Below, one piece after another: positions 27,941 to 40,390 of a DNA stretch of 64,000 nucleotides (the stretch's first letter is position 1; each line of letters starts with the position of its first letter). The DNA is from a virus (lineage: Duplodnaviria; Heunggongvirae; Uroviricota; Caudoviricetes): the IMG/VR virus record IMGVR_UViG_642979322_000022, one strand, 5' to 3'. The position numbers were made by a program, and so were the translations under genes. Below the pieces are notes generated by a model that was not told the DNA's origin, made no database searches, and saw nothing but the letters and a program-made list of their open reading frames with translations.

Positions 27941-27946
27941 GCCCAT

Positions 27947-27971
27947 AAAAAAAGCCCCTCCGGAGAGGGGC
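27947..27971 (-). terminator. rho-independent terminator (minus strand), back-to-back with the plus-strand one
   Basis: Minus-strand GCCCCTC-TCCG-GAGGGGC followed by TTTTTTT. Confidence 0.6.
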
Positions 27972-28220
27972 TTCGCTACGTGTCTGTTAACCATATGCAT
28001 GGTGCCGGGTGCCTCCCGGTGAGTTCAGTATCAGCACCTGAACCCGCACAGAAAGGATAGAGTAGAAACACCTGCGCTGATATGCCCCTCCGCTCAGGGG
28101 GATTCACCATGCCAGTTTCTTTTAACAAACTCCCCGCAAACCAGACAACTGTCAACCGTCTGAATTGTGAGACATTTAAAATTTTCGGGGCGTACCTGAT
28201 ACCCGGTTAATTCTGCAATA

Positions 28221-32648: not shown

Positions 32649-32899
32649 CTCCCCTTATGGGGGCCATCCCTCTTATCCCTGCGCGCTACTTAAGAGCCTC
32701 GATTCTAGCCGTGAAGACATGCCAATCAACAGCAATAAACCACCTGAATAACAGAATCAGCCAGCCACATCGGTACAACCAGATGCATCACGCTCACCGA
32801 AAATAAACAACAAAAAACCGCCGAAGCGAGTTAAGTGGGGTGCGTTGAGGATGCCTGACACATCAGAGGTGGCGAGGGATTTCTCCCCCGCCAGGTCTC

Positions 32900-33055
32900 T
32901 TACTCCTCAGGTTCGTAAGCTGTGAAGACAGCGACCTCCGTCTGGCCGGTTCGGATTCGTACCTCGCAGAGGTCTTTCCTCGTTACCAGTGCCGTCACTA
33001 TGACGGTTAAACAGATGACGATCAGGGCGATTAGCATCGCCTTTTGCTGCTTCAT
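32900..33055 (-). CDS. hok: Hok/Gef family type I toxin
   Basis: 51 aa MKQQKAMLIALIVICLTVIVTALVTRKDLCEVRIRTGQTEVAVFTAYEPEE; the track's 70-aa overlapping frame is Mok-like; the antisense Sok region would lie ~33060-33250 on the plus strand (not resolved). Confidence 0.85.
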   Translation of the reverse strand: MKQQKAMLIALIVICLTVIVTALVTRKDLCEVRIRTGQTEVAVFTAYEPEE

Positions 33056-33305
33056 AGCCTGCTTCTCCTTGCCTTTCGGCACGTAAGAGGCTAACCTACG
33101 TGTGTAGAGCATAGATATGGCCTCAGATTAATGTTAAGCGTCTTGCCGGACGCGTAATGTTAACTGGGGCTTTTCTCTATCTGCCGTTGGTGTTCATGCC
33201 CGAGGCAGATAGCCTCAAGCACCCGCAGCAATTCTACTTAACTCTCGCTTTACCGCAAACCGTTTTTACCCGATATGGGAATTCCCATATCGTAATGAAT
33301 TCAGT

Positions 33306-33404
33306 TCCCTAGTCGATCCATCAAAAACACAACCAGGCAGTAAACGCCCACAACAGCAATAACAGCCAGCGCACCTTCCATTGCCAGTGAAATATCATCC
33401 GACA
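33306..33404 (-). CDS. 32-aa hydrophobic small ORF (not in ORF track)
   Basis: Hand translation MSDDISLAMEGALAVIAVVGVYCLVVFLMDRL; AAGGAGGG 5 nt upstream of the ATG. Confidence 0.3.
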
Positions 33405-33436
33405 TATTCCCTCCTTTGGTGTGAATCCCGGCGAAC

Positions 33437-33520
33437 GTTTTTACCCCCACCGACAAATAACATATACTAAAAAATCAATAGCTATAGCAACGCCTGTAAT
33501 TGCAAAGGCTTCAGGCCAGA
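33437..33520 (-). CDS. 27-aa hydrophobic small ORF (not in ORF track)
   Basis: Hand translation MIWPEAFAITGVAIAIDFLVYVICRWG; ATG overlaps the stop of the upstream DUF551 gene (ATGA). Confidence 0.3.
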
Positions 33521-33883
33521 TCATTGGCGCACCTCCTGCGGCGGTTCTGGTAGCGGCATCCAGTGTGACGGTTTCCACGACGCACCAGGAATTATCCACC
33601 CATCATTAGCGTCAGGATGCCCCGGGATGTAAGTAGCCCATTTCATTCGCCAGTCACCTTTCCTGTCAAACTCCACGGCAACAAGAACGGCTGTTTTGGT
33701 ATTCGGCATTCGCTCACTACAGCTTATCCAACCATCCGGAGTTACCGGAGAATTGCCAGCCTTGCGCATGGCAATCTCCATGATTTCAACCATATCTCCT
33801 GGTGGAATTTTACAATGCTGACCAATATGCCTCTGCTGCCTGGCATATTCGAGGATGTGCTCCAGCTTGATACGATTAATCAT
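33521..33883 (-). CDS. DUF551-like phage protein
   Basis: 120 aa with C-terminal ...WISCSERMP...HWMPLPEPP typical of DUF551. Confidence 0.55.
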   Translation of the reverse strand: MINRIKLEHILEYARQQRHIGQHCKIPPGDMVEIMEIAMRKAGNSPVTPDGWISCSERMPNTKTAVLVAVEFDRKGDWRMKWATYIPGHPDANDGWIIPGASWKPSHWMPLPEPPQEVRQ

Positions 33884-40337: not shown

Positions 40338-40390
40338 TTTCTGGTGACGTTTGGCGGTATCAGTTTTACTCCGTGGCTGCTCTGCCGCCC
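40338..40390 (+). ncRNA. dicF: DicF small RNA
   Basis: TTTCTGGTGACGTTTGGCGGTATCAGTTTTACTCCGTGGCTGCTCTGCCGCCC matches recalled 53-nt DicF with one mismatch; T-run follows; upstream of dicB. Confidence 0.8.

Follow-up and report, generated by a model that had tools for sequence, protein, structure and literature searches.

The subject of this study is a small group of genes in a 64,000-nucleotide (nt) stretch of DNA from a Caudoviricetes virus (IMG/VR virus record IMGVR_UViG_642979322_000022), which is called the window throughout. In this window, a hok type I toxin gene with its mok frame and sok antisense gene is preceded by two very small hydrophobic open reading frames (ORFs), here named ORF A and ORF B, of which ORF A begins at the end of a DUF551-domain gene. 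The region is 100% identical to Escherichia coli O157:H7-type chromosomes. An earlier note on this DNA had placed hok, a Mok-like frame and the two small frames at positions 32900-33520, where they are indeed found, all on the minus strand, although that span excludes the first 4 nt of ORF A. The coordinates are collected in Table 1.

Table 1. Features of the hok region and of the small frames upstream of it, in window positions (aa, amino acids; SD, Shine-Dalgarno sequence)
Feature	Position	Strand	Basis or annotation
DUF551-domain gene, 120 aa	33521..33883	-	Pfam PF04448, E = 6.3e-22; RefSeq WP_000610379.1
SD AGGAGGT of ORF A, 6-nt spacer to ATG, within the DUF551 coding sequence	33531..33537	-	Sequence
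ORF A, 27 aa, MIWPEAFAITGVAIAIDFLVYVICRWG	33441..33524	-	Start overlaps DUF551 stop (ATGA); no RefSeq annotation
11-bp direct repeat GGGTAAAAACG, copy 1 at end of ORF A (copy 2 at 33271-33261)	33436..33446	-	Sequence
SD AAGGAGGG of ORF B	33409..33416	-	Sequence
ORF B, 34 aa, MSDDISLAMEGALAVIAVVGVYCLVVFLMDRLGN	33301..33405	-	RefSeq WP_001278450.1; within XECs145
Perfect 22-bp palindrome CGATATGGGAATTCCCATATCG, central EcoRI site, between ORF B stop and hok -35	33271..33292		Sequence
Inferred hok promoter: -35 TTGCGG 33258-33253, spacer 16 nt, -10 TAGAAT 33236-33231, +1 33224	33231..33258	-	Sequence
hok leader (Sok target region, mok start, hok start)	33050..33224	-	Rfam 'sok' RF01794
mok, 70-aa ORF, shares hok stop	32900..33112	-	ORF list; arrangement as annotated mokW/hokW of 933W
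sok antisense gene: -35 TTGCCT 33069-33074, spacer 17 nt, -10 TAACCT 33092-33097, start G 33104	33069..33177	+	Sequence
hok toxin gene, 51 aa	32900..33055	-	Pfam HOK_GEF, PHROG 251, RefSeq WP_000813254.1 HokD
Full-length hok mRNA, about 413 nt	32812..33224	-	Predicted fold

Coding signatures of ORF A and ORF B

The ATG of ORF A (33524-33522) overlaps the TGA of the DUF551 gene (33523-33521), which bears out the 27-aa frame that had been noticed at an ATGA overlap; in addition, the final codons of the DUF551 gene (PPQEVRQ before the stop) hold a perfect SD that had gone unmentioned. Each small frame encodes one hydrophobic helix, as predicted earlier: the best 17-residue Kyte-Doolittle window covers residues 7-23 in ORF A (score 2.32) and residues 13-29 in ORF B (score 2.95).

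By tblastn, ORF A was found in 92 phage records, mostly of Shiga toxin (Stx)-converting and other lambdoid phages, with some larger phages and P1-like elements, and a motif scan showed that at least 559 IMG/VR stretches encode it. A looser pattern scan of IMG/VR gave a random sample of ORF A loci. The fetched loci held 212 copies, with 55 DNA alleles and 35 peptides, in which both ends are conserved (M-x-W-P-E/D-A, as in WPEAF, and I-C-R-W-G) around a core that is variable and always hydrophobic. Codon statistics were taken from the 17 central codons, which the search pattern left unconstrained. The entropy per column was 0.48, 0.32 and 0.95 at codon positions 1, 2 and 3, the ratio of nonsynonymous to synonymous polymorphism (pN/pS) was 0.44 in frame versus 0.72 and 1.32 in the other two frames, and stops close these off-frames in 51-52 of 52 alleles. 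When contexts were anchored on the start only, 69 of the 73 distinct ones had exactly 27 codons, without any interior stop; of the other four, three have lost 6 nt in frame and one stops two codons early. The alleles diverge to about 50% amino-acid identity while keeping the length, the start overlap, the SD and the end motifs.

The ATGA overlap and a GGAGG-type SD are retained behind at least four types of upstream gene, namely DUF551 genes, a DUF551 remnant and three unrelated proteins without a Pfam match. Since they are kept behind unrelated genes, the conserved unit is the segment made up of the gene tail, the SD and ORF A, and not the DUF551 gene. A DUF551-ORF A fusion, suggested by a 90% cluster shared with 121-aa Shigella 'DUF551' proteins, was rejected as a clustering artefact, since those proteins end in QEVNQ. 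These data make a well-supported case, from sequence comparison, that ORF A is probably a genuine, conserved and translationally coupled micro-protein gene.

When 5,426 complete E. coli genomes were searched at the DNA level with the commonest allele, at least 1,057 had the ORF A segment at 80% coverage or more; any match at all was obtained in 1,705, with some matches on plasmids. Among species-representative genomes, ORF A is confined to E. coli and Shigella besides two short odd contigs (L013 and L014), assigned to a Segatella copri metagenome-assembled genome (1.8 kb) and to Xanthomonas pisi (431 bp), both of which are almost certainly E. coli phage contamination. An intact variant, MSWPEAFTTVGIVMAAALGLYSICRWW, was observed on the P1-like plasmid pOkiPb01717_1 (98 kb; locus L304, 613-696), where it lies between two hypothetical genes and also has an ATGA-type overlap and a GGAGG site. 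Its presence on a P1-like plasmid indicates that the module moves beyond lambdoid phages.

Both frames had been described as unannotated. This holds for ORF A in every RefSeq locus and phage record inspected, and the exact peptide is given as a hypothetical protein in a few GenBank submissions. It does not hold for ORF B, whose frame is annotated as the hypothetical protein WP_001278450.1 in every ORF B-containing RefSeq locus inspected, and which lies within XECs145, a frame from the ribosome profiling (Ribo-seq) study of intergenic small genes in O157 Sakai by Huecker et al. 2017 (PMC5597208). XECs145 is a 54-aa frame that begins at a non-canonical codon in the last part of ORF A and includes ORF B unchanged, whereas RefSeq uses the SD-preceded ATG, giving 34 aa; the position of this frame behind AAGGAGGG was thus seen correctly before, but its length is not 32 aa. 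In lysogeny broth (LB), XECs145 had a transcriptome value of 79 reads per kilobase per million (RPKM), a translatome RPKM of 346, a ribosomal coverage value (RCV) of 4.35 and a footprint coverage of 0.99; in brain heart infusion (BHI), the values were 121 and 150 with an RCV of 1.14, and under combined stress there was almost no translation (PMC5597208). The same study predicted an inner-membrane protein with one transmembrane helix (PMC5597208). The Ribo-seq supplement for strain EDL933 has no entry for ORF B.

Among 103 copies of ORF B, representing 15 DNA alleles at least 92% identical, the SD is kept throughout (as AAGGGAGGG in two of them). Third codon positions vary at 10 sites, first positions at 7 and second positions at 3; the replacements are conservative (I/L/V/M, A/S/V, D/E), and one allele starts with GTG. 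A homologue, B' (MLVLKCALAIAAVMAIYCLAVVLMDRLSD, about 29 aa; 29-30 aa with a GTG start), occurs in phage Tritos and in IMG/VR contigs. It is identical to ORF B at 15 of 28 positions (54%; pairwise E = 5e-10), with the motif YCL..V.LMDRL common to both, and is preceded by a GGAG-type SD of its own; the frame is open in each of the nine alleles, the off-frames are closed and the variation is mostly at third positions. Therefore, where a lack of ribosome occupancy and of conservation in related prophages had been named as evidence against the small frames, published footprints cover ORF B and both frames are conserved in related prophages. ORF B is a real, translated orphan micro-protein gene restricted to these prophages.

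The hok-mok-sok cassette and its relatives

The window Hok matches Pfam HOK_GEF (PF01848) over residues 6-47 with E = 1.2e-23 (82.9 bits, cut-off 22) and PHROG 251, the 'MokW-like host killing' family, with E = 2.8e-33; the N-terminal hydrophobic window (17-residue Kyte-Doolittle) covers residues 8-24. On the leader, the Rfam model RF01794 matched full-length (111.7 bits, gathering score 59, E = 1.3e-25), at the single sok locus of the window. The start of this match coincides with the inferred hok +1, and the promoter block is kept in 933W and other loci. The overlapping Mok-like frame reported earlier is present, at 70 aa, but as a same-frame N-terminal extension of hok and not in a different frame.

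Two experimental checks that had been proposed, on the fold-back elements of the hok mRNA and on the Sok promoter, could be approached by computation. The mRNA folds at -165.8 kcal/mol (z = -6.35; 0 of 100 shuffles equally stable), and in both the minimum free energy and centroid folds the 5' element GGGUGCUUGAGG (33224-33213) pairs with the fbi-like element CCUCAACGCACCC (32850-32838). The mRNA is thus predicted to be closed by 5'-3' pairing (tac/fbi), the fold-back arrangement that defines hok mRNAs. A weak terminator hairpin with a U-run lies at its 3' end (32830-32812). An isrK-like Rfam match on this end (32812-32891, minus strand) stayed at 20 bits, below the gathering score of 50 (E = 0.45), and is probably due to chance.

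The Sok RNA would be about 74 nt long and consist of a long hairpin followed by a U-rich tail (-32.6 kcal/mol, z = -5.39); sokW is annotated at the equivalent place in 933W. A Cappable-seq transcription start site (TSS) of O157:H7 EDL933, 1638863(-), which is listed in all nine columns of the published table, aligns with the predicted Sok start at window position 33104 without intervening indels. The EDL933 copy belongs to a paralogous prophage, in which the ORF A-ORF B segment is identical and the hok allele slightly different (Hok L16I), so the TSS supports the Sok start by homology. A 23-aa frame (MLRVLEAICLGHEHQRQIEKSPS) was also observed within the hok leader (33160-33231, minus strand); its sequence is listed under the name 'sok_10' by a study of EDL933 on possible translated ORFs in annotated noncoding RNAs, and the 'sok_10' leader sequence equals that of the window.

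The presence of a canonical 51-aa Hok toxin in the prophage, as claimed earlier, is confirmed by the agreement of Pfam, Rfam, the mok frame, the fold-back pairing, the Sok promoter and the published TSS. The cassette is intact and already known, and adds nothing new.

In hok/sok (parB) of plasmid R1, studied by Gerdes and co-workers, the mRNA is folded back by 5'-3' pairing, hok translation is coupled to mok, and Sok is antisense to the mok start region; the R1 mok lies in another frame than hok. The window cassette has the same architecture and fits the Rfam and Pfam family models and the predicted fold, but differs from R1 in its in-frame mok and in its phage context, where the likely role is lysis or phage release instead of plasmid maintenance. 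HokW is about 44% identical to R1 Hok (PMC8621323), and so is the window Hok.

The closest characterised relative is hokW-mokW-sokW of the Stx2 phage 933W (Sakai prophage Sp5), whose HokW is 92% identical to the window Hok. Both loci are prophage-borne and have in common the in-frame mok, the leader, the sok position and the promoter block, with ORF A directly upstream. They differ in the C-terminus, which is of the HokD type in the window (TAYEPEE) and VDYESEK in HokW, in the ORF B and palindrome segment inserted between ORF A and hok in the window, and in location, the window cassette being in the nin region and hokW near attR. HokW is toxic and is neutralised by SokW in a partly RNase III- and Hfq-dependent manner (Takada et al. 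2021, PMC8621323). Further, hokW shows RecA-dependent induction after mitomycin C and makes a two-fold contribution to phage release, and hokW-sokW cloned alone is a complete toxin-antitoxin (TA) system (PMC8621323).

In K-12, hokD (relF) of the cryptic prophage Qin encodes a 51-aa protein identical to the window Hok, and its DNA is near-identical to the window from 16 nt 5' of the ATG through the fold-back element and terminator. The downstream neighbours are alike (a rem-like gene, DUF968/ydfU and the Q antiterminator), but K-12 hokD has no leader, mok start, Sok promoter or Sok target, relBE occupying that place, and neither ORF A nor ORF B is present there. Since the homology begins only 16 nt before the ATG and relBE replaces the leader, the window carries the intact ancestral form of the K-12 hokD locus.

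The gene order in the identical genome is that of a lambdoid prophage: replication genes, DUF1627, DUF977, three hypotheticals, DUF551, a 34-aa hypothetical and hokD, followed 3' of hokD by two hypotheticals, DUF968, RusA and the Q antiterminator. The whole set is oriented in the rightward early-operon (nin-region) direction and lies on the minus strand of the window. Elsewhere in the window, Rfam matches above the gathering score were obtained for the small RNA STnc100 (27941-28141, minus strand, 148 bits) and for the antisense RNA DicF (40339-40390, plus strand, 75 bits), which are usual passengers of lambdoid prophages.

Junctions between the small frames and hok

The two copies of the 11-bp direct repeat bracket the segment that holds ORF B and the palindrome, and a single copy forms the ORF A-hok junction in loci lacking ORF B (933W and L010). 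In 933W-like loci without ORF B, the stop of ORF A is 8 nt from the hok -35. As the ORF B segment is bracketed by repeats and absent from 933W-type loci, it is modular. The ORF A-ORF B-hok arrangement is a mosaic junction of the kind usual in phages; either an insertion may have made A-B-hok, or a deletion from repeat to repeat may have made A-hok.

The palindrome, unique in the window, would form an RNA hairpin of -14.5 kcal/mol (z = -4.45) that is not followed by a U-tract. Since it also lies 5' of hok in some other phage contigs that have no ORF B there, it seems to move together with the hok cassette; proteins may bind to it, or its hairpin may mark the end of a transcript. The bases that follow ORF A (GTTCGCCGGGATTCA) resemble the start of the gene following ORF A in VT1-Sakai and look like a scar of recombination. 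A promoter and terminator scan detected no terminator between the small ORFs and hok and no significant promoter for the small ORFs.

Downstream of the 212 ORF A copies, hok follows in about 70%, with or without ORF B. About 25% are without hok and precede xis-proximal genes, terminators or other genes.

Weighing the readings of the locus

We favour, with a probability of roughly 0.7, the reading that the locus consists of an intact hok-mok-sok cassette and of ORF A and ORF B as independent modules for single-pass membrane micro-proteins, which are mosaic accessory modules and not TA components. By homology, the hok mRNA, about 413 nt long and stable, would come from a weak constitutive promoter and be held shut by its 5' end pairing with the 3' fold-back element, until 3' trimming exposes the mok start. 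Abundant, unstable Sok, transcribed from 33104 on the plus strand, would pair at the mok start and lead to decay of the mRNA; when Sok drops, mok and the coupled hok would be translated and Hok would permeabilise the inner membrane. Release of Hok on phage induction may aid lysis, as the 92% identical HokW roughly doubles phage release. ORF A would be translated by coupling whenever the preceding early gene is, ORF B would be made from its own ribosome-binding site, lysogens included, and both would insert as single-pass inner-membrane peptides. Their acidic N-termini and Arg-containing C-termini suggest an N-out/C-in orientation, with the acidic and aromatic WPEAF of ORF A outside and ICRWG inside.

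By analogy, the two peptides probably modulate a host or phage membrane protein, or the membrane state, during early phage development. AcrZ, MgtS and KdpF of E. coli are small single-pass proteins that modulate larger membrane proteins. The window ORFs (27-34 aa) are like them in size, in having a single helix with short polar ends and in a strong SD, but have no sequence similarity to them, and the comparison is one of functional analogy and not of membership.

Several observations weigh against this reading. The pN/pS of ORF A is only moderate and comes from related, non-independent alleles, and the Ribo-seq supplements for Sakai and EDL933 do not list ORF A, which is shorter than their candidates and abuts an annotated gene. 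For ORF B, the published frame XECs145 begins further upstream, at a non-canonical codon, and so overlaps the end of ORF A; O157 genomes hold four to six paralogous copies of the segment, to which Ribo-seq reads may multi-map; four copies have a stop two codons early; and the family is tiny, with seven close-variant representatives in an exhaustive phmmer search of 1.8 billion cluster representatives, so that its coding statistics are thin. As for hok, the canonical +1 at 33224 is missing from the published EDL933 TSS table, in which a hok-strand TSS present in all columns lies 1 nt before the mok ATG (window 33113, EDL933 1638854) and weaker ones at window 33131, 33159 and 33282 (1638836, 1638808 and 1638685). 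With a start at 33113, the mok transcript would be nearly leaderless and its overlap with the Sok start about 10 nt long; the discrepancy could reflect multi-copy mapping, a 5' end sequestered by fold-back, or a true internal promoter. The membrane topology and the modulator role are what we infer for the small proteins. Finally, 80 IMG/VR loci (L220-L299, hok at 901-1053 in each) were picked solely by identical HokD, and in about 50 of them a short hydrophobic ORF ends 29-77 nt before the hok -10. These ORFs are ORF A in 14 loci, ORF B in 7, B' in 14 and, in 15, a type C frame of 59 aa with two helices (MKNALQFLFVAFWLF, ending MCIEYWR).

This frequency bears on the idea that the small hydrophobic ORFs are partners of hok, either as a membrane-level third component that modulates or counteracts Hok insertion, or as a buffer whose translation shields the hok promoter and 5' end from transcription reading through from upstream. 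The restriction of ORF B and B' to positions directly upstream of hok and the closeness of ORF A to the hok -35 in 933W-type loci point the same way. We nevertheless consider a partnership unlikely, since hok is missing downstream of about a quarter of the ORF A copies, such ORFs are lacking at K-12 hokD and in other hok contexts, and the cloned hokW-sokW pair is complete alone (PMC8621323). Moreover, common sequence is found at the A-hok, A-B-hok and B'-hok junctions, each of which a deletion or insertion could turn into another, so the independent associations are few. In its strongest form, lambdoid hok/sok would be a three-part unit whose upstream peptide (A, B/B' or C) acts with Hok at the membrane. 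That proposal is distinctly improbable; if true, the peptide could decide when, or above what threshold, Hok assists lysis, or could shield the lysogen against leaky Hok, which would explain a hydrophobic ORF less than 80 nt from the hok promoter in about two-thirds of phage HokD loci.

The earlier note had allowed that ORF A and ORF B might be small membrane proteins or toxins. The data support the former, given the single hydrophobic helices, the conserved frames and the published ribosome occupancy of ORF B. Toxins, whether type I-like or lysis-type peptides, seem quite improbable, even though both products are short, single-helix and very hydrophobic, are phage-borne and adjoin a bona fide type I toxin. 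Searches of the two ORFs gave no meaningful match in Pfam, the library that would contain known small-toxin families (no family at E <= 1), in NCBIfam or in PADLOC, and PHROG matches only at E >= 0.01 to families of unknown function; no Rfam antisense RNA was found over 33290-33560 even at E <= 1. Two promoter-like sites do lie antisense to the small ORFs, on the plus strand at 33381-33408 and 33440-33468, but the promoter-like count of 4 versus 1.7 +/- 1.3 in shuffles is not above chance, and no antisense TSS at ORF A or ORF B is among the EDL933 TSS-table entries listed. Type I toxins have a sequestered ribosome-binding site, whereas ORF A is coupled in an operon with its perfect SD exposed. 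Growing lysogens translate ORF B well (RCV 4.35 in LB) and show no apparent harm, a weak argument against strong toxicity.

It is very unlikely that the small ORFs are incidental open frames in young mosaic junction DNA spread by recombination. The high identity among ORF B alleles could reflect recent common ancestry, stops come early in four copies of ORF B and in one of ORF A, no curated family matches either ORF, and one broken ORF A copy (L009) has a TAG at codon 3. Around this last copy, however, the region is decayed, the neighbouring genes are truncated and hok is absent, and ORF A elsewhere has diverged by half while preserving its architecture, motifs and third-position bias, with closed off-frames. 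ORF B has ribosome footprints, and the 54%-identical B' keeps both frame and SD.

ORF B being already catalogued and reported as translated, the modest value of the locus lies in ORF A, which has clear coding signatures. About one in five complete E. coli genomes and many Stx-converting phages carry this gene, which is coupled to early genes of the Ea22/DUF551 type and is omitted by RefSeq annotation and by the Ribo-seq catalogues searched. ORF A is therefore a clean candidate for studies of phage micro-proteins. If either peptide affects lysogeny, lysis timing or the action of Hok in Shiga-toxin phages, this would have a bearing on the release of toxin phage.

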